DNA from: Spirochaetaceae bacterium
Lineage (GTDB): Bacteria > Spirochaetota > Spirochaetia > DSM-2461
DNA length: 64,000 nucleotides
Assembly (NCBI GenBank): GCA_051531975.1
Contig: JAOPTT010000009.1
Span: 160,001 to 224,000, forward strand
Direction: 5' to 3'
Shown: one piece after another, positions 1,010-60,660 of the stretch
How the letters are laid out: the number at the start of each line of letters is the position of its first letter
How positions within the stretch are numbered: position 1 is the first letter of the stretch
Made by a program: the position numbers and the translations under genes
The notes under the pieces: generated by a model
Seen by the model: only the letters and a program-made list of their open reading frames with translations
Database searches by the model: none
What the model was told of the DNA's origin: nothing

Positions 1010-1039
1010 AAAAGATATAAATGAGTAAATATTTATAGT

Positions 1040-1064
1040 AATGGGGTTCCTTTGAATCCCATTT
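1040..1064 (+). terminator. Hairpin/probable terminator
   Basis: aatggggttc-cttt-gaatcccatt stem just after the stop codon. Confidence 0.5.
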
Positions 1065-1076
1065 CTAATTTAATAT

Positions 1077-2147: not shown

Positions 2148-2154
2148 AGTTTTT

Positions 2155-2790: not shown

Positions 2791-2827
2791 TAATTGTAAT
2801 GAACTATATTTTATAACGGAGAATTAA

Positions 2828-4093: not shown

Positions 4094-4108
4094 TCTCTAA
4101 AAATATAT

Positions 4109-4164
4109 TTGACAAAAACTACAAATAGAATTAACCTTTACCTATACTAGACCGACGGTCGGTC
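4109..4164 (+). promoter_or_regulatory. sigma70 promoter plus palindromic TetR operator
   Basis: TTGACA(4109)-17-TAACCT, then GACCGACgGTCGGTC inverted repeat (4150-4164) upstream of tetR. Confidence 0.7.
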
Positions 4165-4181
4165 GGGTGTTGTTTTAGGAG

Positions 4182-5548: not shown

Positions 5549-6810
5549 TGTTTTTAATTAAGTTATCCTGGAAGAACTTAACCAGGCATAAAAGAAGAAC
5601 AATAATTACTGCCTTAGCTCTGGCTTTTGGACTGATGATGTACATTTTAATGGATTCATTATTAATTGGGATATTAAACCAGTCAAATACAGTTCTGATT
5701 GAAGCAGAAACAGGTCATGGAAAAATTATTACAAATGAGGCTTTTGATGATCTGAAATTTCTACCTCTAAGCAATCGGGTAAAAAATCCTGATAAGATTA
5801 TGGATATTGTAGAGAGTATAGGTGCTAAAGCTTCTAAAAGGATTAGCATTCATGGAGAGATGATTTATACAGATGAGTACTTTCCAAAATCCGGTTCAAC
5901 TGCAATTCTATTTGTTGGTATTGATAGAGCAACAGATAGCAATGTATTTAATGTTTTTGATCAGAAGTTTCTTGTGGAAGGCCGGTTTATGGAAGAGGGT
6001 GCAGATGAAGTTGTACTTGGTTCATGGCTAGCAGAAGATGTAGGTGCAGACGTAGGTGACTGGTTTACCTTAGCTGTAAGAACAGCATCCGATGGGGACG
6101 ATCCCGGATATTTTCAGACAATAGATGTTGAAGTTGTAGGAATTATAAAAGTTGAAAGCCCTATGGTTAATAGACGTGTTGTCTACTTCCCCCTTGATAT
6201 GGCCGACTACTACCTTGAACTAAATGGTGATGTTACAGAAGTTTCTGTGAAAATGCCTTTTGGTGATACTTTAGACTCTATAAAAGAAAAAATAGATCCT
6301 AAACTTCCTAGTGGTTTAGAGTTTTATACCTGGAGAGCTCTTTCTCCTGACTATTTGGCTCTGACTGAAGCGAAAAGTGGAGGTTCAGCAGTTATTATAT
6401 TTCTACTTGTTCTGATCGCTTTAGTTGGTATTACAAATACTATGTTAATGACCATAAATGAGAGACAAAAAGAACTTGGAATGATGAGAGCATTGGGAAT
6501 GACTGATAGAAATATAAGGCGTTCATTTATTATAGAAGCAGCTGGAATCGGAATAATAGGTTCAACACTTGGAGTTATTTTTGGTTGCCTGGCTAATATT
6601 CCTATGGTAAATACGGGGATTGATTATTCTGAAATGTTAAGGGATGCGGATATGGGATATAGGGTTAGCTCTATAATGAAAGGTATGTGGAATATAAAGA
6701 CTATTATTATCGCTTTTATACTTGGAGTAATTATTCCTGTAGTTGTCTCTATCGCACCTACAAAGAAAGCTATTAAAAAAAGTATCCCGGATTGTATAAA
6801 TGGGCGTTAG
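5548..6810 (+). CDS. FtsX/LolE-like ABC permease (pair 1, subunit A)
   Basis: N-terminal TM, periplasmic domain, ERQKELGMMRALG motif. Confidence 0.88.
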   Translation: MFLIKLSWKNLTRHKRRTIITALALAFGLMMYILMDSLLIGILNQSNTVLIEAETGHGKIITNEAFDDLKFLPLSNRVKNPDKIMDIVESIGAKASKRISIHGEMIYTDEYFPKSGSTAILFVGIDRATDSNVFNVFDQKFLVEGRFMEEGADEVVLGSWLAEDVGADVGDWFTLAVRTASDGDDPGYFQTIDVEVVGIIKVESPMVNRRVVYFPLDMADYYLELNGDVTEVSVKMPFGDTLDSIKEKIDPKLPSGLEFYTWRALSPDYLALTEAKSGGSAVIIFLLVLIALVGITNTMLMTINERQKELGMMRALGMTDRNIRRSFIIEAAGIGIIGSTLGVIFGCLANIPMVNTGIDYSEMLRDADMGYRVSSIMKGMWNIKTIIIAFILGVIIPVVVSIAPTKKAIKKSIPDCINGR

Positions 6811-6819
6811 GAGGTCATT

Positions 6820-8049
6820 ATGAATTTAAGAAAAATTGCAATTAGAAATTTAAAGAGAAACAGTAAAAGATCTCTTCTATCCATTACAGCAACTATGATT
6901 GCAACATTTTCTATAGTCTTCCTGTTTGCCTTCATTGGTGGATTAACATTGGATATGGAAGATATTGCTGTTAATTATGTAACTGGAGAGGTTCAGATCC
7001 GGCATATAGATTTTGACGATAAATCGTTTTCGTTAGATAGAGCTATAGATAACTACAAAGATGTTTTGACTCTACTGAAAAAAGAGCTGCCGGGCGCAGA
7101 ATTCTCACCAAGAATAAAATTCCCATCCACAGTTTTTGATAAAAAAGACTATGATAAAAGTTATGTGAGTTTTGGTGTTGGAGTGGACTTTGAATCTGAA
7201 GAGTCATATTTAGGACTGACTGATAAAATAATAGAAGGTGAAATGCCAACTGATCCCAGAGAGGTAATTATGGGGCATGGTTTAGCCACTGAGTTAAACT
7301 TAAAAATTGGAGATAAATTTACTCCTATAACTTCAACCAGAAAAGGTGCCAGTGCCGGTATTACTTTCAGGATTGCAGCGTTAGCACAGTTTTCAGACTC
7401 TGCATTTACAAATAAGACTTTTATAGTCTCCCTGGAGGAGCTTCCTAAAATGTTAAGAATGGAAGGGGCTGTTTCGGACATCCTGATAAAAGGATTTGGT
7501 AAACAGGATCTGTCTATTGTTGAAGAGAATATTAAAAGTATCCTGATAAGTAATGGATATGATAACCTGGATACCATTTCATGGAAAAGTAGTGGAAGTT
7601 ACGAATATATTGCGATGGCGGAAGGTATATATGGAATAATGGCTTTCTTCTTCTTCATTATGGCAAGTTCTGTTATTGCAAATACAATGTTAATGGTTGT
7701 TTTTGAGAGAAGAAAAGAGATTGGAACAATTACAGCAATGGGTATGACAAGCTGGGAAGTAATAAGGCTATTTTTTATAGAGGCATTTTTCCTTGGTCTG
7801 CTCGGAGCAACAGCAGGGGTTATACTGGGGATTATTGTAATATTACCATTCTCCTACATCGGTATTGATATGTCTTCCATGGCTGGAGAAGTTGATTTTG
7901 GAGCATCGTTTAATATATTCCCTCAATTGAATATTAAATCTACTGTTGTGGTTTTTATCTATTCGGTATTTGTAGCTTCATTTATATCATTCTTCCCATC
8001 TCGGGGAGCAGCAAAAGTTGATCCAGTAGTGGCATTAAGAGCGGAATAA
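6820..8049 (+). CDS. FtsX/LolC-like ABC permease (pair 1, subunit B)
   Basis: ERRKEIGTITAMG; C-terminal AAKVDPVVALR. Confidence 0.88.
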   Translation: MNLRKIAIRNLKRNSKRSLLSITATMIATFSIVFLFAFIGGLTLDMEDIAVNYVTGEVQIRHIDFDDKSFSLDRAIDNYKDVLTLLKKELPGAEFSPRIKFPSTVFDKKDYDKSYVSFGVGVDFESEESYLGLTDKIIEGEMPTDPREVIMGHGLATELNLKIGDKFTPITSTRKGASAGITFRIAALAQFSDSAFTNKTFIVSLEELPKMLRMEGAVSDILIKGFGKQDLSIVEENIKSILISNGYDNLDTISWKSSGSYEYIAMAEGIYGIMAFFFFIMASSVIANTMLMVVFERRKEIGTITAMGMTSWEVIRLFFIEAFFLGLLGATAGVILGIIVILPFSYIGIDMSSMAGEVDFGASFNIFPQLNIKSTVVVFIYSVFVASFISFFPSRGAAKVDPVVALRAE

Positions 8050-8060
8050 GGAAAGAGAAA

Positions 8061-8774
8061 ATGAAGAAAATTATATTAGGACTGTTATTAGTATGTGGTT
8101 TTGGGTTATTTTCCCAAAGTGCAGAAGATATTATTAGAAAGGTTGATGAAAATAGTACTTTTGATACTTATAGAGCATCAGGAAAAGTAGTTATAGAAGG
8201 TAAATACGGTAAAAGAACTAGTGATTTTATTGCATATGCTAAAGGAGCAGACGACAGTATTATAGAGTTTACTTCCGGTGAAGAAGAGGGGCAGAAGATC
8301 TTTAAAACCGAAGATGACCTCTATATAAAGTACCCTTATGCAGAAGAGATTCAGAGACTTTCCAGGAAAAAAACTTTAGGTGCTGTTTCCTATGACGAAA
8401 TGTCTGGAGAGAGAAATACTCTTAAGAACTATAAGGTTAAAATAATTAGAGAAGAGAAGTTTGATGGTGCCGATGTATGGGTAATACAGATGATTGCAAA
8501 GACATCTAAGGTTGCCCACTATAAACAGGACGTTTTTGTAGATAAATCAAACTTTGTTCCTGTTAAGATTCTATACTACTCAAAATCTGGGAAGTTAACT
8601 AAGGAGATGGTCGCTTTAAGGGTTGAGAAAATTGGTAATAAGTTTATGGCAACAAACTCTTTAATAACTGACAAGCTTAAAAGGAATAACTCTACAGAGA
8701 GTTTTATAGATGATATTGAAATTGATATAGAGTTAGACGATGACCTGTTTAGTCTGGATGAACTATCATGGTAA
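8061..8774 (+). CDS. Outer-membrane lipoprotein-sorting (LolA-like) protein
   Basis: Signal peptide; SAEDIIRKVDE, YYSKSGKLTK and DDLFS pattern of the LolA-like family; operon context. Confidence 0.75.
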   Translation: MKKIILGLLLVCGFGLFSQSAEDIIRKVDENSTFDTYRASGKVVIEGKYGKRTSDFIAYAKGADDSIIEFTSGEEEGQKIFKTEDDLYIKYPYAEEIQRLSRKKTLGAVSYDEMSGERNTLKNYKVKIIREEKFDGADVWVIQMIAKTSKVAHYKQDVFVDKSNFVPVKILYYSKSGKLTKEMVALRVEKIGNKFMATNSLITDKLKRNNSTESFIDDIEIDIELDDDLFSLDELSW

Positions 8775-9856
8775 AAAGAGTTATCCTTGGTGCCGGAATG
8801 TTTTTTCTGGCAATCACATCTCTGTTCTCAGAGGTTGATATAGACACATCCTTATCAGCATTAATTACAGCTGGAATGGTTGGAGATGAGGATATTACAT
8901 CCTCTGGTCTAGCCACAGGGTTATTCTCGGTAAAATCGGTGGGGAATAAAAATGTAAAATCCCAATTAACACTAGATTTTACCTCTATAAGAAGCCTTGG
9001 GACTTTATCTATTAGTAAGGCATTTATTAAGTTTCGTTACCCTGATATTAGAGCAACAATTGGTAAAACCAGAATTACCTGGGGTGACGGAGCCGCTTTT
9101 AATGCTGGAGATGTTATCTTTGATGATTATATAGCACCAGGAGGGGAGGTCGAAAATGTTGATCTAACCGCCGATGAGTTAAAATCTATGAACAGAACTA
9201 TGGTTTTATTAATCTATCCATTAGGACGTTTTACATTTTTAGAAGGTATATATCTTCCATACGACTTTTTCTCTGTAGATGATTTAGGACTTATTGCGAC
9301 AGGTGAACTTCCTGAGGATGAGGAGTTAGACCAACACAGCATTGGTGGGCGTTTTGTATCAAAAGCTGGTGGAATAAAATTAGAAACTGGCTATATCTAT
9401 AATGGATTTTCAGAAGTTCATAAACCATATGTAAGTTTTAATGGAACAATGTTTTTAGATTACCACTTATCTGCATCTGTAAATATCACAAATGGTGAAA
9501 CAGATTTTGATGATTGGGATGAAACATTAAAAATTACTACAGGGCTTTTTTATCTATTTGACTTAGAAAATGATATAACACTTACTACAAGGTTAGAAGC
9601 ACAAATTAAACCATATGCTGATTGGGATTCTGATGCATTGTTACTCTATCCTGAAATTGCTTTTGTCCCAAATGAAGAGTTATCTCTATTTGTAAGGGCT
9701 ATTATTAACCCTCTTGATGTAAGTACTGAGAGCTCTTTAGGGCTTAATTGGAGAACCTACCAAGGTTTTACTATAGGTTCATTTTTGACTGCTGATTTTG
9801 TAGAGGATGAAGATACTGAATTGGCATTAACAATTATGGTGACACATAAATTTTAA
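8768..9856 (+). CDS. Hypothetical exported protein, probable outer-membrane beta-barrel
   Basis: Signal peptide, IGKTRITWG motif, C-terminal Phe. Confidence 0.6.
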   Translation: MVKRVILGAGMFFLAITSLFSEVDIDTSLSALITAGMVGDEDITSSGLATGLFSVKSVGNKNVKSQLTLDFTSIRSLGTLSISKAFIKFRYPDIRATIGKTRITWGDGAAFNAGDVIFDDYIAPGGEVENVDLTADELKSMNRTMVLLIYPLGRFTFLEGIYLPYDFFSVDDLGLIATGELPEDEELDQHSIGGRFVSKAGGIKLETGYIYNGFSEVHKPYVSFNGTMFLDYHLSASVNITNGETDFDDWDETLKITTGLFYLFDLENDITLTTRLEAQIKPYADWDSDALLLYPEIAFVPNEELSLFVRAIINPLDVSTESSLGLNWRTYQGFTIGSFLTADFVEDEDTELALTIMVTHKF

Positions 9857-9870
9857 AAAAAGGGGAGTAG

Positions 9871-11133
9871 ATGTTTTTAATAAAGTTAGCCTTTAAAAAT
9901 CTTACCAGGCATAAGAGAAGAACTATTATTACCTCTTCGGCACTAGCTGTTGGTTTAATAATGTTTCTGCTTTTAGATTCTCTATTAGTTGGAATGTTTG
10001 AAGCTTCAAATACAAACTTAAAGGACTCAGAAACTGCAGAAGGTAAAGTTTTAACTACTGGAGCATTTGAAGATATAAAATTTCTCCCTTTTAATAATCG
10101 AGTAAAAGATCCAGATTCAATAATGGAAATAATAGAAGAGTTAGGTGGTAAAGCTTCAAAACGTGTTGTCATAAATGCGGATATGATCTTTACCGAGGAA
10201 TACTTTCCATTAGCAGGTTCTACCCCCATACTTTTTACATCTGTTGATTTAAAAACTGATAACAACGCATATAATGTTTTCAGAAATCGATATTTAGTTG
10301 ATGGTCGGTTTATGGAAGAAGGATCCGATGAAGTTGTAATGGGGTCATGGTTAGCAGAGGATATTGGAGCAGAAGTTGGTGATTGGTTTACCATCTCTAC
10401 TAGAACAGCCCCAGATGATGACGATCCAGGATATCAACAAACAATTGATGTCGAAATTGTTGGTTTAGTAAAGGTTGAAAACCCAATGATAAATAGACGT
10501 GTTGTCTATTATCCTCTTGATATGTCCGATTATTACTTAGATCTTTATGGATCTGTAACAGAGGTCGCACTTAGAGTTCCCTTTGGTGAAACATTAGAAG
10601 AGTTTCAAGATCGAATTAATCCAAAATTACCTAAAGATCTGAAATATTATACCTGGAAAGAGGTTGCTGCTGACTACGTAAAATTATTAGAAGCTGAGAC
10701 TGGAGGAAGTGCAGTTATTTTGTTTCTTATTGTTTTAATAGCATTAGTAGGTATTACAAATACAATGTTAATGACTATAAATGAGAGACAGAGAGAACTT
10801 GGAATGATGAGAGCTTTAGGAATGTCAGGTAAAGATATTAGATTAGCTTTCCTCTACGAAGCTGCGGGAATAGGAATAATAGGTTCTGTTATTGGTGTTC
10901 TACTGGGAGTATTACTAAATATACCAATGGTAGAGTATGGTATAGATTACTCCTCCTATATGAGAAACACAGATATGGGGTATAAAATTAGTGCAATCAT
11001 GAGAGGGTCATGGAATATACCGTCATTTTTTATCGCTTTCTTCTCAGGGATTATTATTCCAGTTCTTGTCGGTATTATTCCTACAAAAAAAGCGATACTT
11101 AAAAGTATTCCAGACTGTATAAGTAGTAGGTAG
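9871..11133 (+). CDS. FtsX/LolE-like ABC permease (pair 2, subunit A; paralog of 5548-6810)
   Basis: Collinear with and strongly similar to 5548-6810. Confidence 0.88.
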   Translation: MFLIKLAFKNLTRHKRRTIITSSALAVGLIMFLLLDSLLVGMFEASNTNLKDSETAEGKVLTTGAFEDIKFLPFNNRVKDPDSIMEIIEELGGKASKRVVINADMIFTEEYFPLAGSTPILFTSVDLKTDNNAYNVFRNRYLVDGRFMEEGSDEVVMGSWLAEDIGAEVGDWFTISTRTAPDDDDPGYQQTIDVEIVGLVKVENPMINRRVVYYPLDMSDYYLDLYGSVTEVALRVPFGETLEEFQDRINPKLPKDLKYYTWKEVAADYVKLLEAETGGSAVILFLIVLIALVGITNTMLMTINERQRELGMMRALGMSGKDIRLAFLYEAAGIGIIGSVIGVLLGVLLNIPMVEYGIDYSSYMRNTDMGYKISAIMRGSWNIPSFFIAFFSGIIIPVLVGIIPTKKAILKSIPDCISSR

Positions 11134-11193
11134 CCTGGTCGGAACACATATGTATGCACATTGCCTGCTCAGCTAGGTAACCAAGGAGATAAT

Positions 11194-12417
11194 ATGAAGC
11201 TTAAAAAAATAGCCATAAGAAATATTAAACGGAATAAAAAGAGATCCATGTTATCGATTATAGCTACAGCAATTGCAACTTTTGCTATTGTATTTATGTT
11301 CTCATATATTAAAGGTATGGAACTTGATATGAAGGATATGGCATACCATTACGATACTGGTGAAGTTCAAATTAGAAATAAAAAAGTAGATGAGAAGATA
11401 TTCTCGTTAGACAGAGCAGTAGATGATTATAAAAATATAATTTCGATTATACAAAAAGAGTTACCCCAATTGGAAATATCTCCAAGACTTCGGTTTCCAT
11501 CCCAGGTTCTAAAAGATGATAGAACGTTTACATGTTTTGGAATTGCAGTAGATTTTGAAACAGAACAAAAGTATTTAAAACTAGAAGAGAAGATTATAGA
11601 GGGGCGACTTCCAAAATCTCCTAGGGAAGTTTTTATGGGCATCGGTTTAGCCCAGGAGTTAGGACTGAATATAGGTGATAAATTTACCCCAATAACCATG
11701 ACTAGAAAAGAAGCTAGCTCCGGGATTACTTTCAAAGTTGTAGGTTTTGGGAAGTTTTCTAATAGTGCTTTTACAAATAAAACTTTTTTAGCACCATTAA
11801 CAGATATTCCTACAATTTTAAAAATGAAAGATGCAGTCTCTGAAATACTATTTAAAAACATAGGTGATGATTATTGGCTTTCTACAGCTGACGAGATAAA
11901 TAAAATCTTAGAAAAAAACGGTTATGATCAAGTAGAAGCTCTTTCCTGGACTGTTGTTGGATTAAACTATGGAATGTTAGAGATGGCGGATATTGCATAC
12001 TCAATTATGGCTCTATTCTTTTTTGCATTAGCCAGTACTGTTATTGCAAATACTATGTTAATGGTTGTATTTGAGAGGAAGAAAGAGATTGGAACGATTA
12101 CAGCAATGGGAATGACAAGCAATGAAGTAATTAGACTATTTTTTCTTGAAGCATTAATGTTAGGTATTTTAGGTGCTGGTTTGGGAGTTCTATTAGGTGT
12201 TATTCTAGTAATTCCTCTCTCATATATCGGTATGGACCTCTCATCTATGGCTGACTCTGTAGACTTTGGTATCTCATTTCTAATCTACCCTCAGTTAACA
12301 CTAAAATCCACAGTTTTTGTATTTTTCTATTCGGTTTTTGTTGCCTCATTTGTCTCTTTTTTCCCATCAAGAAGTGCAGCAAAGGTAGACCCTGTAGTAG
12401 CATTAAGAGCAGAATGA
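11194..12417 (+). CDS. FtsX/LolC-like ABC permease (pair 2, subunit B; paralog of 6820-8049)
   Basis: Start moved to ATG 11194 (AAGGAG SD; aligns with the paralog N-terminus); same C-terminus. Confidence 0.88.
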   Translation: MKLKKIAIRNIKRNKKRSMLSIIATAIATFAIVFMFSYIKGMELDMKDMAYHYDTGEVQIRNKKVDEKIFSLDRAVDDYKNIISIIQKELPQLEISPRLRFPSQVLKDDRTFTCFGIAVDFETEQKYLKLEEKIIEGRLPKSPREVFMGIGLAQELGLNIGDKFTPITMTRKEASSGITFKVVGFGKFSNSAFTNKTFLAPLTDIPTILKMKDAVSEILFKNIGDDYWLSTADEINKILEKNGYDQVEALSWTVVGLNYGMLEMADIAYSIMALFFFALASTVIANTMLMVVFERKKEIGTITAMGMTSNEVIRLFFLEALMLGILGAGLGVLLGVILVIPLSYIGMDLSSMADSVDFGISFLIYPQLTLKSTVFVFFYSVFVASFVSFFPSRSAAKVDPVVALRAE

Positions 12418-31790: not shown

Positions 31791-31942
31791 CTTTATCATT
31801 ATATTTTTACTAAAATTTAATTTTATTTAAATAAGTTGTAACTTTTTGAAAGTTGAGTTGTCTTATTAGATATACAACGTAATAATTTTCGTTTAAACGT
31901 ACTCCTTTTTTCGGATCCTGCTACTAGCAGGGTCTTTTTTTA
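31791..31942 (+). repeat. Dispersed non-coding element, copy 1
   Basis: Nearly identical to 58028-58180 and similar to the reverse complement of 60397-60525. Confidence 0.92.
31871..31941 (+). ncRNA. Candidate ECF-sigma-dependent sRNA, copy 1
   Basis: TGTAAC(31837)-N17-GTCTTA promoter-like motif, anti-SD CTCCTT, GGATCCTGCT-act-AGCAGGGTCT hairpin + T tract; no ORF. Confidence 0.55.
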
Positions 31943-37235: not shown

Positions 37236-37501
37236 ATTAAAATATTTAAATAATATAAAAACTCCTCCTCAAGAACTGTGTATAAAATTCCTTAAAATAG
37301 TCAAAGTGCTGATTTTTAAACTTTTGAACAGATTTCAAAGACCATAAAGAACCATTTTAAATAAAAGATCACTTTTCAAAGTATACGGATTTGGCATCTC
37401 AGCACAATAATTTAATTAAGCTTCAATACAGTCCGGACTCTGTTTAAAGTTTATTACACGCTTATTTAATACAGCATTTAGTTTAATCAAAGGAGATTTA
37501 A

Positions 37502-38800
37502 ATGAAAAAAAGATTTTTTATCGTAGCATGTGTTTTATTTTTTTTAACCCTTCCAGTATTTAGTAATGGGAATAAAGAAGCAAAAGAAGATGGACCAATT
37601 ACATTAACAGTTTGGGACTTTAAATATGGTGAGGCAGAAGCTGCTGGTCCTGTCTTTAGAGAGATGGATAGATTATTTATGGAAAAGAATCCTGGAATAA
37701 TTATTGAGCATATAGCACAGCCAAATGATCGATATTATGAAATATTAAGAGTTGCAATGGCAGGTGGAACTTCTCCAGATGTTGCAATGTTTGGAGCTTC
37801 TCTTATTAATGTAAATGGAGAAGGTTTAATTGATCTTGATAGCTCTATTGATCCATGGAGAAACCAGATTCCTGAAGCTATCTGGACATCTTGTACAACA
37901 AATAAAGTTGCTGGAGACCCTGTTAAAGTCTCTCCAATAACAATTCAAGGCCGGGGTTTTTATTATAACAAAAAGTTATTTAAAGAAGCCGGTCTAGATC
38001 CTGAAAAGGCACCTATTGAATGGGCTGATTTTTTAGCAACATGTGAGCAGTTAAAAGCAGCTGATATTATTCCTATAATTTGGGGAAATAACAATCCTGG
38101 TGATACTGGTCTATGGTTGTTAAGAACATTCCTTGGTAGTTTCTATAATAATGAAGATCATCAAGATTTTATTAGTGGATGGGATTTTACATCACCAGGT
38201 GTTAAAACTGCAGTAAGTATGATTAAAGAGCTTAAAGATAAAGAATATCTTGATCCTAAAGGTATCTATACTCCGTTATGGATGGATGCAATTGAGAAGT
38301 TTAAAGCCGGAGAGGGAGCTATATTCCATGGTCTTCTTTCAGATATCGCTCATTGGAAAGATTTTAGTGATGCACTAGGTGAAGAAAATGTAGGGTATTT
38401 TGCTAATGTAAATCATCCAGATGCTAAATATCGAGATGCTCAGGTTTTTGTTGGAGCAGGTATATCATACGGTATATATGAAAGCAGTAAATACAAAGAA
38501 GCTGCAGCTCTATATCTAAAACATTACTCAGTTGGTGATGCACCACTACTATATCTTGAAAAAACAGGTGCACTGCTTCCAAATGCAGATATTGATTATA
38601 GTAAAACAGGTTATCCAATAGTTAATGATATTATGGATGATGTTAAGAAGTTCTCTGTATATGGAGGATTTGGTCCTAAATTAAATCAACAGATATCTTC
38701 AGATCTTGTTCCTAACTTAGGTCTGTTATTAAATACAGATGAAATTACAGTTGATGATTTTCTGAAAGAGATGCAGAAAAGTCTTGAGAATTCACAATAA
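37502..38800 (+). CDS. Sugar ABC substrate-binding protein (paralog 2)
   Basis: Signal peptide PVFS-NGNKE; YYNKKLFKEAGL. Confidence 0.9.
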   Translation: MKKRFFIVACVLFFLTLPVFSNGNKEAKEDGPITLTVWDFKYGEAEAAGPVFREMDRLFMEKNPGIIIEHIAQPNDRYYEILRVAMAGGTSPDVAMFGASLINVNGEGLIDLDSSIDPWRNQIPEAIWTSCTTNKVAGDPVKVSPITIQGRGFYYNKKLFKEAGLDPEKAPIEWADFLATCEQLKAADIIPIIWGNNNPGDTGLWLLRTFLGSFYNNEDHQDFISGWDFTSPGVKTAVSMIKELKDKEYLDPKGIYTPLWMDAIEKFKAGEGAIFHGLLSDIAHWKDFSDALGEENVGYFANVNHPDAKYRDAQVFVGAGISYGIYESSKYKEAAALYLKHYSVGDAPLLYLEKTGALLPNADIDYSKTGYPIVNDIMDDVKKFSVYGGFGPKLNQQISSDLVPNLGLLLNTDEITVDDFLKEMQKSLENSQ

Positions 38801-38841: not shown

Positions 38842-39732
38842 ATGTTCAAATTGAGAAAAAAAACAATCAAAATAAACGAAACGTGGGATGCATGGCGATT
38901 ATTAACCCCTTTGATGGTACTAATGGTAGTTTTTATTTTAATACCTGTATTATCTAATTTTTATACTAGTTTTACAAAATGGGATTTAATATCAGCACCA
39001 AAATGGGTTGGATTCAAGAATTTCATTACTACATTTAATGATAAAAGATTTTTAAAGTCATTAGAAAATTCATTTATCCTTATAACTTATATTCCTGTTG
39101 CAACTTTTTTGCCTGTTATTCTCGCAGCTTTTTTAAAAGAAGGTTTACCAGGGTGGGGTATATTTAGAACAATATTATATCTTCCTAACGTAATGGGTGG
39201 AGTTTTAGTTGCTATTTTATATAAAACTTTTTTAAGACCTGATGGACCTTTTAATACTATTTTACGATCAATAGGTCTAAGCATATTGGCAAGAGACTGG
39301 CTTGTAGATAGTTCCCAGTCAATTCATACTGTTGGATTATTAACTATACTGTCTGTATTAGGCTTTGGTTGCATCTTTTTCATAGCTGCTATGAGTAGCA
39401 TTGATAGCTCACTTTATGAAGCGGCTGTTCTTGATGGAGCTAATTGGTGGCAATCATTTATCCATATTACAATACCGTCTATACGGTTTTCAATTGAGTT
39501 TTTTCTAGTTCTTCAGTTTATAAATGTATTTGCCAGGATGTTTGGCTTAATTTATAACCTCACATTTGGGGGTCCAGGGTTTTCAACCTATACATTTGAA
39601 TTTGGTGTATATGTACAGGGATTCCAACAATATAGATATGGTCTTGCAAGTGCATGGTCAGTAATATTGTTTTTCTTCTGCTCAATAATTGCAATAGTCC
39701 AGATAAGACTAATGAAAAGGAATGAATCATGA
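38842..39732 (+). CDS. Sugar ABC permease (MalF-like)
   Basis: LYEAAVLDGA EAA motif, GGPG. Confidence 0.92.
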   Translation: MFKLRKKTIKINETWDAWRLLTPLMVLMVVFILIPVLSNFYTSFTKWDLISAPKWVGFKNFITTFNDKRFLKSLENSFILITYIPVATFLPVILAAFLKEGLPGWGIFRTILYLPNVMGGVLVAILYKTFLRPDGPFNTILRSIGLSILARDWLVDSSQSIHTVGLLTILSVLGFGCIFFIAAMSSIDSSLYEAAVLDGANWWQSFIHITIPSIRFSIEFFLVLQFINVFARMFGLIYNLTFGGPGFSTYTFEFGVYVQGFQQYRYGLASAWSVILFFFCSIIAIVQIRLMKRNES

Positions 39733-40568
39733 ATAATACAATTAAATATAATCCGACACTAAAAATTATAATATATCTAGTTCTAATAGTCTTTTCTACA
39801 CTTGCTATTGGTCCCATAATATTCAGCTTTTTTACAAGTTTCCGTACAAATCCAGATTTTGTAGCTAATACACTAGCACTTCCTAAATCTGCATATTTTG
39901 AAAACTATAAATTTATGATTTTTGATGCTAAAATTTATAGATATTTTGTAAACAATTTAATCATCGGAATAGGTGGTTTATCTATATATATATTTGTTTC
40001 TACCAGTGCCGCATTTGCATTTGGTATACTTAGATTTACAGCAAGAAGAGCTATCTTTTTATTGGTTCTTTTTTTAATGATTTTCCCGCAAATGGTAATA
40101 GCAATACCTCTTTTTAAGATTTGTCTTAAATTGGGTATTTACAATACTAGATTAGGATTAATACTAGCATGGGCTGCATATATTGCACCATTTGGGACAT
40201 ATATGTTAACAACCTATTTTTCAACAATTCCAAGGGCTATATATGAATCTGCTCAAATTGATGGTGCTAAGATATATACAGTATTGTTTAGAATCATGAT
40301 GCCAATTGCTAAACCGATGATAACTACTTTGGCTATTATGGGGTTTTTAGGACTCTGGAACGAGTTTACATTCGCTTTACTTCTGCTTCAAACACCTAAG
40401 CTTCGTACTGTTTCTCTTGGTATTGCAATGTTAGCTGGAGAATATGGATTATCTGTACCAAGACTGTCTGCTGGTATAATGATATCGTCTTTAGTTCCTT
40501 TAGGTGTTTTCCTGATATTCCAAAACCGTGTTGCATTTGGAGCATCGGCAGGATCGGTTAAAGGATAA
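39729..40568 (+). CDS. Sugar ABC permease (MalG-like)
   Basis: IYESAQIDGA, WNEF, GSVKG. Confidence 0.92.
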   Translation: MNNTIKYNPTLKIIIYLVLIVFSTLAIGPIIFSFFTSFRTNPDFVANTLALPKSAYFENYKFMIFDAKIYRYFVNNLIIGIGGLSIYIFVSTSAAFAFGILRFTARRAIFLLVLFLMIFPQMVIAIPLFKICLKLGIYNTRLGLILAWAAYIAPFGTYMLTTYFSTIPRAIYESAQIDGAKIYTVLFRIMMPIAKPMITTLAIMGFLGLWNEFTFALLLLQTPKLRTVSLGIAMLAGEYGLSVPRLSAGIMISSLVPLGVFLIFQNRVAFGASAGSVKG

Positions 40569-41614: not shown

Positions 41615-41651
41615 AGTAACATTGTGGACCCTGTGGATCCACAATGTTACT
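41615..41651 (-). terminator. Terminator hairpin after GH89 fusion
   Basis: 14-bp perfect stem agtaacattgtgga/tccacaatgttact. Confidence 0.75.
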
Positions 41652-44600
41652 ATCTTTTCCGTAGTGTCTGTATTACTTCTTGTAACTGGTAATTATTATC
41701 TTCAAGTAGGAGTCTACTTTCATTTTTATCAATTGAAAAAAGTTCTTTTAAAATAGTCTGTGCTCGTTTTTGCAGTTTTTCATTTACACAGGCCACCTCT
41801 ATCATATAAGAACCTTCAACCTTCCCAAGCTGTATCATCACGCTGGATGATAATGTATTTAGAACCTTTTTAGTTGCTGTCCCGGCTTTCATTCTTGTTG
41901 AACCACATACAACTTCAGGACCGCTGTTTAGAGCTATGTGTTGATCAAAAAACTCTATTTCAGGGTATATATCACTTATTAGAATTGTTAGGCATCCAAG
42001 ATCTTTTCCTGCTGCTAAGGCTGAACGGACGTAGTAGGCTGTAGAACTTGCTGATATTCCAATAATAACATCCTCGGGTTTAGGTTTAATAAGTAATAAT
42101 TCTGGTATAGAACTTGCGTCTTCTTCATAGTTATATTCAATATCAAGGCAAGCATCTGCCAGCCCTCCGGATATTAAAGTAATTGAGTCCTCTTTTGGAA
42201 AACCATATGTACAATTAAGTTCCACTGCATCAAGGGCTGCGATTCGTCCACTTGAACCACAACCTACATAAATAAGGCGTCCTCCGTTACGTATGCGTTC
42301 AGTAATTAATACTGTACATAATGAAATTTCAGGGAGACTCTTTTTTATTGCCCTACTTGATTCCAGTTCCGCCTCTAAGAAGAGTGTTGATAACTCCAAA
42401 GGTGACATGTTTTGTAACTGTAGTGTAGGGTTATATACATCCTCAGTTCTTAGTTTAGAGTGATCCCCACCAAATCGAGACTTTTCTGAAACGGATTCTG
42501 AATGTGCAAGAGCTGCGGCACCGATCATCTGAAGTAAATTACCATCTTTTAATACCCGTAGTGTTGTTGTTGTTCCTTCTAACTGTTTCTGCAAATTAAA
42601 ACCAGCACGGTTACATGCTTCAACCAACCCTCCGGAAATAAGTACTTCATCTAGTTGATACATCAGCACTGCTATTTGAACTGCTTCACGTAGGACTTTT
42701 AAATATTTTTTCCTTTCGCTTTCGAAAGATGGAAGATTAAAAAATGCTACAAGATCACCCTCTGCCAGGTCGGAGAGGGCGCTTGCACTAATACGTTCAT
42801 CCATTGATTTCCCATCTAAATACAGAGATCCCAGTAGTGTATATTCCCCTCCAGGTCGCCAACGTCGTCCACTTTTTAATACAGAAAAACCTAAGCCGGT
42901 TCCTATTACCATAAGACCAGTATTACCTTTTGTTGATATTAGTGACTTTTCAGAAGCTCCAATAAGGGCTGCATCAGCATCATTAATCAGTGAAACAGGG
43001 CAGTTAAAAAAATGCTTTAACTTATCTATCCACCCGCTTTCGTTTAAAGGTCGTAGATGTGGTGAACATTTCTCAACGCATGTACCATGGTAGTTAACGA
43101 TACCCGCAGTTGATATGACTATTGCATCCACACGGTTACTTCCTAACATTTCTATTAGGCGTATAATCGTAAAAAATAAGTCATCGCTACTGGCTTTTTG
43201 TCCTAAAGGGCTTCTTACCTTCTTTGTCGGTGAAATCTTTTGTGGATGTACACCAACAGCAAGTGAGCCCTTAATCCAGCTACCACCAATATCGATTAAT
43301 ATATATTTCACTCTATTTTTTTTATATTTATTAGTCAGCTTTTTTACAATTTTATACTCATCTGTATATGCTTCTTCTGTGATTGAAGGATGTATAACCC
43401 AATCCCATTCAAGTATATTCATCTGTTTATTAAGTTTATCCTCATCTATCGGGTTACCTTCTCTTAAAGAACAACTACAAGCATCAAAAAATAGTTGCCA
43501 GCGTGGAAGGTGATATGTTAAATACATAGCGCTAAGATCTCTGTTTGCATAATCAACCAGTTCGTTGTTATCAAGGCTTCCCCATTTACTTATTATATTC
43601 CTTGCATCCTTCTCATAATATTCGATCTCATTTGTTGTTTCTCCTGTATTTCGCACTAAATTCAACCAGCTGTCTAATCTGAATTCTGAGCGGCTAGACA
43701 ATAGTGATGCAATATCCTTGATAAGGTCTTCAAACTCTATTCTATATTTATTAAAATCATTAATGTTTTTCTCTATATATGCTTTGTATATTTTTTTTCG
43801 TATTACACCTGAATGATTAACCAGAAATTCTCTTGTAAAATTCACCAGATCAAAACGGAATCTATCATTAGCTAAACAATTACTATAGGCAATACATAAT
43901 AGCTCGATTGCTTCTAGAAGAGTAGAATTATCATATCCTACAGTATCATCACCCCAAAGGCATGAACGGCCATCAAGTCCAGGGCGAGTCCTGATAAATC
44001 CTCCACAAAAAAGTTCAGGATTGGTATAATGGGAATAAATGGACTTATGTAGCAGGCTCCAAGCCTTTTTCACATTTTTGTCATCCTTTCCACACCGTCG
44101 TTCAGCATAAGATTGAATCCATTTTGAAGTGTCTATTGGTTCATCCTGCCATATCCTCTCTAATAAATAATCATAGACATGTGGATTATCATCTAAACCT
44201 TCTAAGGTTAAACCTATACCTGTCATAGTTTCTGTTCTACTATCAGTGAATGCTTTATTAAGTTTTTCCTCTATCAGATCTATTGGTCCAAGAAGTTTAG
44301 TTTGACCACCAAAATTTCCAAGATAACACCATAAGAAATTCTGAGAGTAGAAGCCATCAGTCTCTCTCCATAACTCTCTATTTTCACAATAATAATCCAA
44401 CATGATCAATTTATCTTTAGGTACTGCACTTAAATATGCCTTTACTCTTGGTGGTGTCCACTGCTCACTGTTATGGTAAAATAACCAACTCATCTGCAAC
44501 CAGACAGCATTGTTATTACTTTTTTTTAGAGAATTATAAATTGTCTCTGAGACTTCAGCTAGATAGTCAGGTTCCCAACTAGGAGGAATCAGTTCATTAA

Positions 44601-45480
44601 ATGGATCAGCTGCATAAACCTCACAATAGCCAAATTGTTTTTCCTGTTCTTTAAGAAATAGTTTCTGAATTTTATCAAAGTAGGGATCCTGTGGATCAAG
44701 AAACCATGTACTAAATTCCCTCTCAAAACCATTCCATGATTCCAATTGTTTGATACTTATTTCCGGAATGTATTTTGTAATCTCAAATGGGATATGCCCG
44801 CAGAATGCAGGTAGAACAGGGCGCATATTGAAACTCCTCTGTCGGGATAGAATCTTTTTCTGTAGTTTTTTTTGATTAATAATATAGCTCTCTGGAAGAG
44901 CGCCACCCCATTTATCTATAATTCCCATTCTTTGGAAGGGGAGATATGCTGGTCCAGTAAAAAAGTTAAGTATCTCTTTTTTACTTAAACCAAGTTGATT
45001 CCAGACTGTTTGCCAAATGGCTTCTTGTCCTGTTATTGCGAGTGGCATATTTATTCCATTAAGAGCCATCCAGTCTATAAGGCGTTCCCACTCATTCCAG
45101 CCCCAATATGGCATTGAATAGGAAAAAGTACAGTAATTCAAAAAAAATCTATCTTTTAATATTGATGATTTCCATACAGGTGTAGCTTGGGGTAGAACAT
45201 CTGGAACTTCTACAGGATTTTCTACTAACCAGCTTACCATGGTTTTACAGTCATATTTTAGATAGTGGTTTAATGCACAACATATCGATAGGTTATTATT
45301 ACCGGATAATACTATTTTACCGTTGTTATTACTAATCTCAAAATATTCATCATTATCATAGTTTTTTAATAGTTTTAATTCAAATCTTTCCTCATGCTGA
45401 GGTATCAGACGATGTATCATTTCACTTAAAGCCCGTTTGTCTTCATGCTCTGCTAAACTCTTATATATTTTAGTTTTCAT
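41650..45480 (-). CDS. GH89 alpha-N-acetylglucosaminidase + ROK sugar kinase + MurQ-like SIS etherase fusion
   Basis: NYCTFSYSM, DWMALNGINMPLA, DPFNE (GH89); IDIGGS, INDADAA, GTGLG (ROK); GRLIYVGCGSSGR..LDAVE, GPEVVCGSTRMKAGTATK (MurQ). Confidence 0.85.
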   Translation of the reverse strand: MKTKIYKSLAEHEDKRALSEMIHRLIPQHEERFELKLLKNYDNDEYFEISNNNGKIVLSGNNNLSICCALNHYLKYDCKTMVSWLVENPVEVPDVLPQATPVWKSSILKDRFFLNYCTFSYSMPYWGWNEWERLIDWMALNGINMPLAITGQEAIWQTVWNQLGLSKKEILNFFTGPAYLPFQRMGIIDKWGGALPESYIINQKKLQKKILSRQRSFNMRPVLPAFCGHIPFEITKYIPEISIKQLESWNGFEREFSTWFLDPQDPYFDKIQKLFLKEQEKQFGYCEVYAADPFNELIPPSWEPDYLAEVSETIYNSLKKSNNNAVWLQMSWLFYHNSEQWTPPRVKAYLSAVPKDKLIMLDYYCENRELWRETDGFYSQNFLWCYLGNFGGQTKLLGPIDLIEEKLNKAFTDSRTETMTGIGLTLEGLDDNPHVYDYLLERIWQDEPIDTSKWIQSYAERRCGKDDKNVKKAWSLLHKSIYSHYTNPELFCGGFIRTRPGLDGRSCLWGDDTVGYDNSTLLEAIELLCIAYSNCLANDRFRFDLVNFTREFLVNHSGVIRKKIYKAYIEKNINDFNKYRIEFEDLIKDIASLLSSRSEFRLDSWLNLVRNTGETTNEIEYYEKDARNIISKWGSLDNNELVDYANRDLSAMYLTYHLPRWQLFFDACSCSLREGNPIDEDKLNKQMNILEWDWVIHPSITEEAYTDEYKIVKKLTNKYKKNRVKYILIDIGGSWIKGSLAVGVHPQKISPTKKVRSPLGQKASSDDLFFTIIRLIEMLGSNRVDAIVISTAGIVNYHGTCVEKCSPHLRPLNESGWIDKLKHFFNCPVSLINDADAALIGASEKSLISTKGNTGLMVIGTGLGFSVLKSGRRWRPGGEYTLLGSLYLDGKSMDERISASALSDLAEGDLVAFFNLPSFESERKKYLKVLREAVQIAVLMYQLDEVLISGGLVEACNRAGFNLQKQLEGTTTTLRVLKDGNLLQMIGAAALAHSESVSEKSRFGGDHSKLRTEDVYNPTLQLQNMSPLELSTLFLEAELESSRAIKKSLPEISLCTVLITERIRNGGRLIYVGCGSSGRIAALDAVELNCTYGFPKEDSITLISGGLADACLDIEYNYEEDASSIPELLLIKPKPEDVIIGISASSTAYYVRSALAAGKDLGCLTILISDIYPEIEFFDQHIALNSGPEVVCGSTRMKAGTATKKVLNTLSSSVMIQLGKVEGSYMIEVACVNEKLQKRAQTILKELFSIDKNESRLLLEDNNYQLQEVIQTLRKR

Positions 45481-58027: not shown

Positions 58028-58180
58028 CTTTAATCATAATATCTTTACTAAAATTTAATTTTATTTAAAGATTTTGTAACTTTTTGAAAGTTGAGTTGTT
58101 TTATTAGTTATACAACGTAATAATTTTCGTTTAAATATACTCCTTTTTTTGGATCCTGCTACTAGCAGGGTCTTTTTTTA
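58028..58180 (+). repeat. Dispersed non-coding element, copy 2 (direct repeat of copy 1)
   Basis: Aligns with 31791-31942 with scattered substitutions. Confidence 0.92.
58109..58179 (+). ncRNA. Candidate sRNA, copy 2
   Basis: TGTAAC(58075)-N17-GTTTTA; CTCCTT; identical terminator hairpin. Confidence 0.5.
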
Positions 58181-58316: not shown

Positions 58317-59591
58317 CTACTCTTTTGTGATTCTTTTACTAAACGATTTTATTCTTTTGTTTATTTCTGCTTTAATTCTTCCAGCAGCTTTTATATCTGG
58401 AAATCTAGATTTAAAATTAATTACTTCATCATCTAAAACTTCTTCCAATTTGGAAGACATTTTAATAAATGACTCTATTAAAATATCTGAATTTTTATCA
58501 AGCCCCCAACCACATAGTTCGGCCTTAAAATGATCGTTATTCCATTCGAACCAATGATTATTTTTATTCATTTCATAAGCGAAATTAGAAATATATTCTT
58601 TATAAATACTTGTGCATAAAATATCATAAAATGGAGATAATATCATTTTACCGTTTACATAAAGAAAAGAAATATTTTTAGAATGAGAATCATTATTTCC
58701 AATTAATAAATTAAAACATATCCAGTTCATATATTCTTTAACATCCTCGATAACATTTGAACTATATGTCTGAATAGCATTATAGTTATCTTTAAGATTC
58801 GGACCACTGTTACTTTCATACTTCTCTGATACTAAGCAGTTTTGAACCTGACAAAAGTCGACTTGATGTAGACGTGCAACTTCATCCTCAGATATTATTT
58901 CTCTGTCATACCTTTCTATTAAATAGAAAGGTATTTCTCCGCTTATGATATCAACCTCAGAAACATTCAATCCACATGATTGTGCTAATTTCATACAAAA
59001 GTATTCGTTATATACGCTGTCTTTTACTGTTTTATTCATATGTGGAGGTTTTAATATATGCGTAGTTGGAGCTCCATTTATTGGAATATAAATGGAGCCT
59101 TCATTATATACTACTGGTATTTTGTCCTGTGCACCTGCCAAAGAAAACCTACCATTGTGATATTTTATTACATGAGCCATTAAGTTTTCATTATTTTTAT
59201 ATGCTTTTGAAAGTTCCTTAAGATCTAACTGTTTATAATTATCTTTTTCAACCTTAATAGAGAGGGTCTTATTAGGAGAAATAATAAATGCTCCTGCACA
59301 GTCTACTCCATATTCTTCTAAAAATTTATATCCAGTTTCAACACTTTTTCCTAATAATTTTTCTAAACGTTCTTTAACTAAACCTTCGGGAATTAAATTT
59401 TCAAAATAAGATAAACACTCTTTATTATTAAATGGTTCAGTTCTTTTTAAATCTAATACAGGTGATAATGAAAAAGATTCATTAGATAAAATCCAATTAG
59501 AATCATATACAAATGAAAGTGTGGCATCATCATTATTTGTAAGTATTCCAACAATACTATTCTTGTAAAAAACATATAAAATACTCATCAT
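58317..59591 (-). CDS. hipA: HipA family Ser/Thr kinase toxin
   Basis: N-terminal couple_hipA subdomain; FSLAGAQDK, THILKP, GNNDSHSKN, LSPFYD; ATGA overlap with the hipB stop. Confidence 0.92.
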   Translation of the reverse strand: MMSILYVFYKNSIVGILTNNDDATLSFVYDSNWILSNESFSLSPVLDLKRTEPFNNKECLSYFENLIPEGLVKERLEKLLGKSVETGYKFLEEYGVDCAGAFIISPNKTLSIKVEKDNYKQLDLKELSKAYKNNENLMAHVIKYHNGRFSLAGAQDKIPVVYNEGSIYIPINGAPTTHILKPPHMNKTVKDSVYNEYFCMKLAQSCGLNVSEVDIISGEIPFYLIERYDREIISEDEVARLHQVDFCQVQNCLVSEKYESNSGPNLKDNYNAIQTYSSNVIEDVKEYMNWICFNLLIGNNDSHSKNISFLYVNGKMILSPFYDILCTSIYKEYISNFAYEMNKNNHWFEWNNDHFKAELCGWGLDKNSDILIESFIKMSSKLEEVLDDEVINFKSRFPDIKAAGRIKAEINKRIKSFSKRITKE

Positions 59592-59857
59592 CTTTCCTTT
59601 ATTTCTAGTGATAAACTGCATACTTTTAATATTTTTAATAGAGTTGAAATTCTTATATCTGTCTTACCATTTTCAAATTCACTTATAGCTATACGTGATA
59701 CATTAGAATATTTTGCAAGGTCTTGTTGTGATAATTTATTAGTTGCTCTGTAGTTTTTAATGACATTTGAAATATCATTACCACTAATGACGCTAATAGA
59801 TTTAATTTTAGTTTTAGCTTCAATATTTATATTAGGAGATTTCATTTTAAATTTCAT
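59588..59857 (-). CDS. hipB: XRE-family HTH antitoxin (HipB-like)
   Basis: LSQQDLAKYSNVSRIAISEFENG HTH; coupled upstream of hipA. Confidence 0.85.
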   Translation of the reverse strand: MKFKMKSPNINIEAKTKIKSISVISGNDISNVIKNYRATNKLSQQDLAKYSNVSRIAISEFENGKTDIRISTLLKILKVCSLSLEIKER

Positions 59858-59901
59858 ATGTTTTCCTCATTTATCACATTATAATCAATAAAATATACAG
59901 C

Positions 59902-60038
59902 TTGTAAACTATAGCTTGCAAAACTAAATCAATTAACAATTTGTAAACTATAATATACAAAACTATATAAAACTACAATTTGTAAACTATAGCATACAAA
60001 ACTGTATAAATCTACGATTTGTAAACTAAAGCATACAA
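59902..60038. repeat. Four palindromic 20-bp boxes at an exact 39-bp period (probable HipB operators)
   Basis: TTGTAAACTAtagcaTACAA at 59902, 59941, 59980 and 60019. Confidence 0.85.
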
Positions 60039-60396
60039 TATTATATTAATCTAAAATATATTTGTATATGAGGTTACCCATATAGAGTAATTCATCATAC
60101 ATAAAAACTATGGGAATATAGATCGTATAACAAAGAGTTGGTAATAAAAATTATTTTGTCATAGCCTATATAGTAGTTTTAAATCCCTATGTGCTGAAAA
60201 GCACTAACCTATACACTTTTCTTTAAAATTATATATGTTAATGTTTTTCTCTTAATATAGAGTAAACCGTAATTGTATTTGGAGGTCCTAGAATAATAAT
60301 GATTTGGTATAAACTAATTTTATATAATAGTTAGAGAAACAACTTTTCAATCATGTGAGTAAGCCTGCTAACTATTTTCAATCGATTTTATTTCAT

Positions 60397-60525
60397 ATAA
60401 AAAAAAAGACCCTACTAGTAGCAGGATCCGAAAAAAAGGAGAATTTTCAAAAAAAATTATTATGTTATATATAGTAAGACAACTTAACTTCCAAAAAGTT
60501 ACAAATTATTTAAATAAAATAAAAA
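60397..60525 (-). repeat. Dispersed non-coding element, copy 3 (inverted, more diverged)
   Basis: Reverse complement reads TGTAACtttttggaagttaagttGTCTTA...CTCCTTTTTTTCGGATCCTGCTACTAGTAGGGTCTTTTT. Confidence 0.88.
60399..60469 (-). ncRNA. Candidate sRNA, copy 3
   Basis: Same promoter geometry and anti-SD; the hairpin has a G-C to G-U change that preserves pairing. Confidence 0.5.
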
Positions 60526-60660
60526 AAGTTCAAAATATAAAAATAGATTTTTTCATGTTTTCAGCATTAACACACTAAATTTAAATTGATAGATATAATT
60601 CAATTTCCAAATATGTCATATTCTAATGATATGAACATCCATAACTTCCTTAAATAAGTA

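Follow-up and report, generated by a model that had tools for sequence, protein, structure and literature searches.

Three kinds of described small RNAs (sRNAs) come closest to the element treated here, a putative sRNA that occurs in three copies in a stretch of 64,000 nucleotides from a Spirochaetaceae bacterium (contig JAOPTT010000009.1 of assembly GCA_051531975.1, positions 160,001 to 224,000 of the forward strand; called the window in the following) and that can pair with the start of a gene for a sugar ABC-transporter solute-binding protein (SBP) at position 37502. MicA and RybB from Enterobacteria use Hfq, and RybB pairs by a seed at its 5' end and not by an anti-Shine-Dalgarno (anti-SD) sequence. 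The cia-dependent small RNAs (csRNAs) of Streptococcus have the CiaR box as hallmark of their promoters. As criterion for csRNAs an anti-SD together with a CAU as anti-start codon in the unpaired region has been used, the CAU being carried by 53 of 61 of them (PMC3091779). AbcR1 and AbcR2 from Rhizobiales are homologous sibling sRNAs in genomes rich in ABC transporters, which silence the mRNAs of periplasmic SBPs by means of an anti-SD motif; this motif, UCCUCCC, forms one of the loops in an RNA with three hairpins and acts together with Hfq (PMC3712013). FoxI from Fusobacterium nucleatum represses mRNAs of envelope proteins including the SBP mRNA mglB (PMC9546586).

The copies of the window share with the csRNAs the multi-copy sibling sRNAs ending in terminators and the idea of an anti-SD/anti-start sequence, but they show no CAU as anti-AUG (the aligned place reads CGU, CGU, UUU and UGU in the copies), have no Rfam match and a different promoter, belong to another phylum and imply a spacing of 9 nt between SD and start, where the genome most often has 5-6 nt. 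With neither CAU nor Rfam match they would not be members of the csRNA family. The likeness to AbcR1/2 lies in sibling RNAs with an anti-SD and in a best-fitting predicted class of 88 SBP-like genes. In contrast, the anti-SD CUCCUUUU is placed in a linear unpaired tail, the targets are predicted, and a search of the genome revealed no Hfq above the Pfam cut-off (best match 18.4 bits against 27 bits, inside an 805-aa frame); there is also no sequence or Rfam relationship. Judged by the anti-SD hairpin loop and Hfq, membership in AbcR1/2 would fail as well. With MicA, RybB and FoxI the copies have in common an upstream block resembling the sigma-E motif. They differ from these sigma-E sRNAs in that the C of the -10 element is lost in two of seven copies, that neither a clear regulon nor a conserved cognate extracytoplasmic function (ECF) sigma factor is evident and that Rfam gave no match. 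The likeness to all three kinds would be one of mechanism only.

We lean, if only just, towards the explanation that the SBP match is a by-product of generic anti-SD and AU complementarity and that the RNAs form a likely new family of anti-SD sibling sRNAs. The anti-SD CUCCUUUUUU of the RNA would pair with any extended SD that is A-rich and of the AAAAGGAG type, and the AU-rich tails would pair with AU-rich spacers and AUG-AAA-AAA starts, as they are common at 31.5% G+C. If expressed, the sRNAs would block translation by covering the SD and the start codon of strong-SD mRNAs, with the 88 SBP mRNAs as the best-fitting predicted target class and the SBP gene at 37502 as one unremarkable candidate among about 70-80 that would fit equally well or better. 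As a specific target this gene is unsupported.

Predicted pairing of the copies with the SBP start

The features on which the comparison is based are the following; a fourth copy is located at C5:341825-342002 of the same genome (G000).

37489..37508, + strand: SBP start region and predicted pairing site, reads AAAGGAGATTTAAATGAAAA
37502..38800, + strand: SBP gene (ABC-transporter solute-binding protein), 432 aa, SBP_bac_1 / SBP_bac_8
31837..31864, + strand: copy 1, conserved upstream block, TGTAACTTTTT-N9-GTTGTCTT
31879..31942, + strand: copy 1, predicted sRNA body; AU-rich unpaired tail with anti-SD CUCC, terminator stem 31913-31935, T-run
58075..58102, + strand: copy 2, conserved upstream block, GTTGTTTT; its GTC has T for C
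58117..58180, + strand: copy 2, predicted sRNA body; SBP-pairing 23 nt 58124-58146, anti-SD CTCC 58140-58143, terminator 58151-58173
60400..60503, - strand: copy 3, whole; block 60476-60503, tail 60430-60465, terminator and T-run 60400-60429

The site at 37489-37508 is an ordinary, canonical strong translation-initiation region, consisting of the SD AAAGGAG (37489-37495), a 6-nt spacer, the ATG (37502-37504) and the first bases of a Lys codon (AAAGGAG-N6-ATGAAAA). An earlier note on this DNA had described the leader in the same way and had proposed copy 2 as antisense to it, and its sequence readings could be confirmed: the quoted reverse complement of copy 2 is present at 58118-58146 without mismatch and in copy 1 at 31880-31908 with two mismatches, and the complement quoted for copy 3 is found at 60436-60462. 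Also the proposed duplex was reproduced by RNAduplex, its 13 bp being separated from the 7 bp at the SD by a 3-nt bulge on the sRNA side. It comprises 20 bp in two blocks, an anti-SD block and a UUUUCGUUUAAAU block, spans positions -14 to +7 of the mRNA, contains a single G-U pair, which involves the U of AUG, and has an energy of -18.2 kcal/mol. The other copies reach -16.3 (copy 1), -13.3 to -14.0 (copy 3) and -13.1 to -13.7 kcal/mol (copy 4) at the same start.

The note had called this a strong match within the window, and at this point we have to disagree. Using a simple caller for open reading frames (ORFs) and SDs that favours starts with an SD we obtained 4588 genes, and 4583 start regions (-35 to +25) were scored against the 34-37-nt tails, all genome-wide ranks being based on hybrid energy only; a re-implementation of RNAduplex in C gave the same result as ViennaRNA for each of the 18,332 pairs. 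With the default loop limit the SBP start ranks 80th for copy 2, 261st for copy 1, 433rd for copy 3 and 923rd for copy 4, and with loops of at most 6 nt the ranks are 68, 200, 445 and 894. The best of the 56 called window genes is expected near rank 80 of 4583, so the SBP match with its rank of 68-80 is at chance level, and the SBP start is the best of the window for copy 2 only. For copy 1, which had been said to pair similarly, this holds only weakly, with -16.3 kcal/mol and a rank of 200-261. When opening energies were included, the pair of copy 2 and the SBP start came to -12.4 kcal/mol, which places it 58th among the 300 best hybrids, and extending the tail by 12 nt at the 5' side moved the SBP start to ranks 120 and 315.

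As control we used shuffles that keep the anti-SD core and permute only the head of the tail. Out of 1000 such shuffles per copy, those at least as favourable as the real energy made up 0.004-0.009 with copy 2 and 0.03-0.036 with copy 1; with copies 3 and 4 the fractions were 0.23-0.50 and 0.18-0.19. Taken by itself the copy 2 pair does well in this control, but with 56 genes and three copies inspected about one pair at the level of copy 2 is expected by chance. The idea that the RNAs recognise the SD together with the start codon fared no better: the copies imply the geometry GGAG-N9-AUG and the SBP gene has N6. Among the 1836 starts bearing GGAG, a spacing of 5-6 nt (the genomic mode) is present in 52% and one of 9 nt in 6%, and because the N9 geometry is so rare a clamp over SD and AUG nearly always needs a bulge.

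The SBP gene at 37502 is the second of two tandem paralogs, the first one starting at 35937 with rank about 1900-2000 for copies 1 and 2. Its product matches SBP_bac_1 (8.7e-25) as well as SBP_bac_8 in Pfam and it is followed by two BPD_transp_1 permease genes (38842-40568), and the locus also carries genes for a sulfatase, an AraC-type regulator and an alpha-N-acetylglucosaminidase fusion. The latter is a 1276-aa ORF (41650-45480, - strand) in which a complete alpha-N-acetylglucosaminidase (NAGLU N, TIM-barrel and C domains) is fused to ROK-family and SIS domains; its position beside the sulfatase and the AraC regulator suggests a locus for the utilisation of sulfated glycans. No homologue of the SBP was found at E<=1e-20 in the three congeners G001-G003, which are 96%, 81% and 71% complete.

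The best predicted partner within the window of copies 3 (rank 43) and 4 (rank 25) is the start at 9871. It belongs to a tandem duplication at 5548-12176 with a spacing of 4323 nt, whose blocks 5974-6576 and 10297-10899 are 75-81% identical and which includes paralogous genes for 421-aa membrane proteins at 5548 and 9871.

The predicted target class

The note had further supposed that the RNAs act on exported proteins as a class. A simple heuristic identified 1001 of the 4583 genes as signal-peptide-like, corresponding to a base rate of 21.8 per top 100, and 28-150 shuffles were used per class test with several measures being tested. The 100 best partners of each copy contained the following numbers of signal-peptide-like genes, compared with 28 dinucleotide shuffles of the head.

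Copy 1: 23; shuffle mean 16.9; 5 of 28 shuffles reach this number
Copy 2: 37; shuffle mean 20.1+-5.7; 0 of 28 reach it
Copy 3: 52; shuffle mean 30.5+-7.5; 0 of 28 reach it
Copy 4: 22; shuffle mean 20.0; 12 of 28 reach it

Mononucleotide shuffles gave a similar outcome for copies 2 and 3. For these two copies the supposition thus has some basis, but copy 1 and the conserved fourth copy stay at the base rate, and copies 1 and 2 are 92% identical. Moreover, signal-peptide-like genes other than SBP genes gain nothing in median energy (+0.25 to +0.6 kcal/mol, copy 3 -0.1), which argues against a preference for exported proteins in general. The class that is favoured are the SBP genes. From the 88 SBP-like genes, which we collected by an iterated profile search, 7, 10, 21 and 4 are found in the top 100 of copies 1-4 compared to 1.9 expected and 2.3, 2.6, 11.6 and 3.5 in shuffles. 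Their SDs are strong, with GGAG in 81% against 39-41% elsewhere and AAAGGAG in 25% against 4-5%, and 47% of them start with MKK. The anti-SD core alone gives -8.0 kcal/mol for SBP-like genes and -6.0 to -6.4 kcal/mol for the rest, an advantage of about 2 kcal/mol. The favoured predicted class are therefore SBP genes with strong extended SDs, and the data are suggestive of a class signal that is specific for SBPs and not for exported proteins generally and that is largely due to SD strength, from which alone about half of it comes.

Several observations weigh against a mere by-product. The median difference between SBP-like genes and the rest is -3.30, -3.45, -4.85 and -2.85 for copies 1-4 against a null of -1.61, -1.69, -3.53 and -1.33, a modest excess that was attained in 3, 6, 11 and 8 out of 150 dinucleotide shuffles. 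The SBP advantage is also kept among genes with AAGGAG and an M-K start (p=0.005, 0.006, 2e-7 and 0.16). As to the gene at 37502 itself, its pair with copy 2 alone beats 99.1-99.6% of the head-shuffled controls, and for this copy it is the 6th best of the 88 SBP-like genes and could hence be a true target; since copies 1-3 are specific for this genome, the absence of the SBP from the congeners would be compatible with a newly evolved target.

Should these points be taken at face value for the single gene, its mRNA would have been selected as a genuine target of copy 2 (and of copy 1), with the duplex acting as a clamp over the SD and AUG-Lys with a 3-nt bulge that blocks 30S binding. The 20-bp duplex over -14 to +7, its low single-pair shuffle fraction and the rank within the SBP class speak for such a target, and the glycan-utilisation locus to which the gene belongs is about 4 kb away from copy 1. 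Nevertheless, 67-79 other starts pair better with copy 2, as expected for the best of 56, copy 1 (rank 200-261) and copy 3 (433-445) are further behind, the tandem paralog is not among the predicted targets, the gene was not found in the three congeners and the pairing requires a bulge to reconcile the N9 geometry of the sRNA with the N6 of the gene. We consider a selected target of this kind improbable.

Taken for the whole class, the same excess would fit siblings that act as envelope-stress (ECF/sigma-E-like) sRNAs lowering periplasmic SBPs and some other exported proteins, in the manner of FoxI, MicA, RybB and AbcR1/2. The SBP-like counts in the top 100 and the excess over dinucleotide shuffles point in this direction, as does an enrichment of signal-peptide-like genes that are no SBPs for copy 2 (27 against 17.6, reached by 2 of 28 shuffles) and copy 3 (31 against 19.1, reached by 0 of 28); the repression of mglB by FoxI (PMC9546586) would be a precedent. 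Against it stand the contribution of SD strength, which alone gives about half of the SBP effect, a per-copy excess of only about 2 standard deviations in copies that are related to each other, and the genus-conserved copy, which shows neither signal-peptide nor top-100 enrichment. The congener G001 offered a replicate: pairing its own sRNA with 19 SBP starts gave the same direction, but without significance: the SBP median is -12.7 against -11.63+-1.27 in the shuffles, of which 103 of 500 attain it, and for a second value the number is 74 of 500. An envelope-stress regulon is for us a doubtful possibility, to which we return with the promoter.

Anatomy and distribution of the element

The likely new family of anti-SD siblings is defined by an anatomy that all copies share. 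A search with nhmmer over 5.46 Mb (31.5% G+C) gave a total of four copies; copies 1-3 can be aligned across about 150 nt. Each copy consists of the invariant TGTAACTTTTT-N9-GTTGT, an AU-rich stretch ending with CUCCUUUU, a 10-bp hairpin and a T-run. Together with the three congeners seven sequences are available, and TGTAACTTTTT, GTTGT as well as CUCC and the U-tract are unchanged in 7/7. In copy 3, which is encoded on the - strand, the anti-SD lies opposite GGAG at 60438-60441. On folding, copies 1 and 2 are predicted to keep their tails unpaired. The terminator has a stem of 10-11 pairs followed by the T-run, it folds in all copies with its 10 pairs being 100% paired in 7/7 sequences, and a terminator scan gave one site against 0.0-0.1 in shuffles. 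No ORF of at least 40 aa overlaps copies 2 or 3, and no conserved protein-coding frame was found. Opposite copy 3 there is an ATG-initiated frame of 38 codons (60462-60578, + strand), which is probably not a gene because copies 1 and 2 read ACG at the position of the ATG. Expression and the 5' end of the RNAs are inferred, as are the anti-SD mechanism, the target class and the sigma factor; the arrangement itself agrees with the anatomy of a trans-acting sRNA with CUCCUUUU in an unpaired region that the note had assumed.

In each of the three congeners one copy was found, always of the type of the fourth copy (BLAST and covariance model). These copies are syntenic, being located between a divergent gene for a hisC-like aminotransferase and fhs, which follows about 70 nt downstream. 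Both neighbours were also considered as targets and rejected, with ranks of 2420-4358 for fhs and 185-3176 for the hisC-like gene. The covariance model found the element in all four genomes of the genus and gave one weak match in 34 genomes of other genera of the family. This match (G016, L036:1500-1600, E=0.006) reads CUCCCUCCUUUU directly 5' of a GC-rich terminator and lacks the shared promoter block; possibly it represents an anti-SD sRNA of analogous kind whose upstream region differs.

With Rfam 15 no match was obtained at gathering score for the window, and on the four loci only two sub-threshold matches to unrelated families (E 0.55-0.8) and no riboswitch were seen. A pattern for the promoter block retrieved 10 loci from a collection of genome contigs, only two already known Spirochaetales metagenome-assembled genomes (MAGs) carrying the element, and 21 loci from metagenome contigs, none of which fits the covariance model; a pattern for terminator and anti-SD gave 7 loci, with the element again only in those two MAGs. 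Among the papers listed by a literature search for ECF-dependent or anti-SD sRNAs from spirochaetes none was on such an RNA. Of the sequencing runs listed for the stretch none was an RNA run containing it, and one metatranscriptome shares next to none of its sequence words. From the sequence evidence the RNA family is probably real and undescribed, and most likely its genes represent a genus-restricted family of sibling trans-acting sRNAs with four members here and one per congener.

The synteny with fhs allows a different view, namely that the element is not trans-acting at all, the conserved copy being a cis leader or attenuator of fhs and copies 1-3 dispersed, possibly mobile cassettes of promoter and terminator, so that the complementarity to starts would be meaningless. 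The conserved copy indeed lies about 70 nt 5' of fhs on the same strand in all four species, and copies 2 and 3 are inverted repeats around a hipBA-like module. Copies 1 and 2, however, have no co-oriented gene downstream within 4-5 kb, a strong terminator follows after only about 35 nt of unstructured RNA, no riboswitch was matched, and the start of fhs comes near the bottom of the predicted partners (rank >4000 for three copies); the invariance of CUCC and the U-tract in 7/7 sequences also speaks against this view. We regard a purely cis-acting or cassette-like element as quite improbable.

The inverted repeats formed by copies 2 and 3 have 85-nt arms with 81% complementarity. The hipBA-like toxin-antitoxin module between them (58317-60046, - strand) encodes a HipA_C/Couple_hipA protein (58317-59621) and an HTH_3 protein (59588-59857), and upstream of it four tandem 39-nt operator-like repeats are present at 59891-60046, each with TTTGTAAAC...TACAAAAC.

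The upstream block and the meaning of the family

The conserved block upstream of the tails, as given above for copy 1, could represent a promoter of the ECF/sigma-E-like type, or it could itself be transcribed as the 5' part of a longer RNA. No convincing sigma-70 promoter was found at the block or upstream of it. The block reads GTAACTT-N16-TCTTA with an A/T-rich stretch on its 5' side, and it resembles the AAC / GTCWAA sigma-E motif known from F. nucleatum and E. coli (PMC9546586 and PMC1851643), which is the point of contact with envelope-stress sRNAs. The form AAC-N17-GTC is present in five of seven copies. The C of GTC, which is described as invariable or essential in sigma-E promoters (PMC9546586, PMC1851643), is replaced by T in copy 2 and by A in G002, and this counts against an envelope-stress role. 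We scanned 4564 upstream regions with a neutral two-block position weight matrix (PWM) in place of post hoc promoter regexes drawn from ECF upstream regions. Two of the ten sigma-family genes of the genome (Sigma70_r2) rank 43rd and 57th, the others 928-4084; by rough arithmetic the chance for these two ranks is about 0.007, and they support the envelope-stress class. Neither pattern nor PWM scans of the upstream regions revealed a clear regulon of block-like promoters.

One of the two top-ranked genes (C8:66152-67315, L025:1441-2604) encodes a 387-aa protein in which ECF-type sigma regions 2 and 4 are fused to a C-terminal FliG_C domain, with AACTTTTT-N11-TGTCTATTAG located 19 nt 5' of its ATG. 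As cognate ECF factor it was rejected: it has the best matching promoter but no ortholog in the 96%-complete G001. A second candidate, a 157-aa ECF sigma factor with an 82% ortholog in G001, was dismissed with a PWM rank of only 1167. In a locus at C6:287510-289225 (L027) its gene is followed by genes for a 244-aa single-pass membrane protein, anti-sigma-like and without Pfam match, and a secreted caspase-domain (Peptidase_C14) protein; GTAAC-N16/17-GTTTTA is present 5' of this sigma gene in both G000 and G001. Among the sigma genes checked against G001 no conserved cognate ECF factor was identified, and with the missing ortholog and regulon the envelope-stress reading loses part of its support. 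A sigma-E-like promoter is thus possible, plausible but unproven, and the MicA/RybB-like role that the note had suggested for the RNAs is an analogy standing or falling with it.

Sibling sRNAs typically combine a conserved 5' end with a middle that varies, and this counts for the alternative that the block is transcribed. The product would be an sRNA of about 110 nt with a 5' hairpin, an unpaired anti-SD linker and the terminator, similar to csRNAs, and its promoter would be the A/T-rich stretch upstream. RNAalifold proposes an 8-bp helix GUUGAGUUGU/ACAACGUAAU whose 8 pairs are 100% paired in 7/7 sequences compared to 34-65% in slid controls, with one pair changed on both sides and G-U intermediates present. 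Such conservation is easy to reach because the 5' strand is G/U-rich and transitions on the other strand keep the pairing, and accordingly 183 of 500 shuffles reach the helix score. A seed at the 5' end was rejected too, as start regions show no enrichment for the complement of the invariant 11-mer UGUAACUUUUU (0-1 against 0.5-1.7 expected). The lack of a convincing sigma-70 promoter upstream and the fit of the block to an ECF-type promoter also oppose a transcribed block, and we hold such a longer RNA to be possible only in a tentative sense. The nucleotides pairing with the SBP start would lie in an unpaired part under either anatomy.

The main lesson concerns method: in an AT-rich genome an anti-SD sRNA always meets a good-looking partner nearby, and signal and composition can be separated only by genome-wide ranks combined with shuffles that preserve the anti-SD core. 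A bolder picture, which we put forward as speculation and think unlikely, is that of a marine glycan-degrading spirochaete genus in which undescribed ECF-driven sibling sRNAs throttle with their anti-SD tails an expanded set of SBP mRNAs (88 here, the gene at 37502 included). This would be an independent reinvention of the AbcR/FoxI logic without Hfq, with the three extra copies diversifying toward MKK-type starts. If expressed, the RNAs would add to the small number of trans-acting sRNA families that have been defined in free-living spirochaetes and would give another example of a link between anti-SD sRNAs and SBP genes for nutrient uptake, and they would help to understand how bacteria that forage on glycans control their outlay on periplasmic binding proteins.

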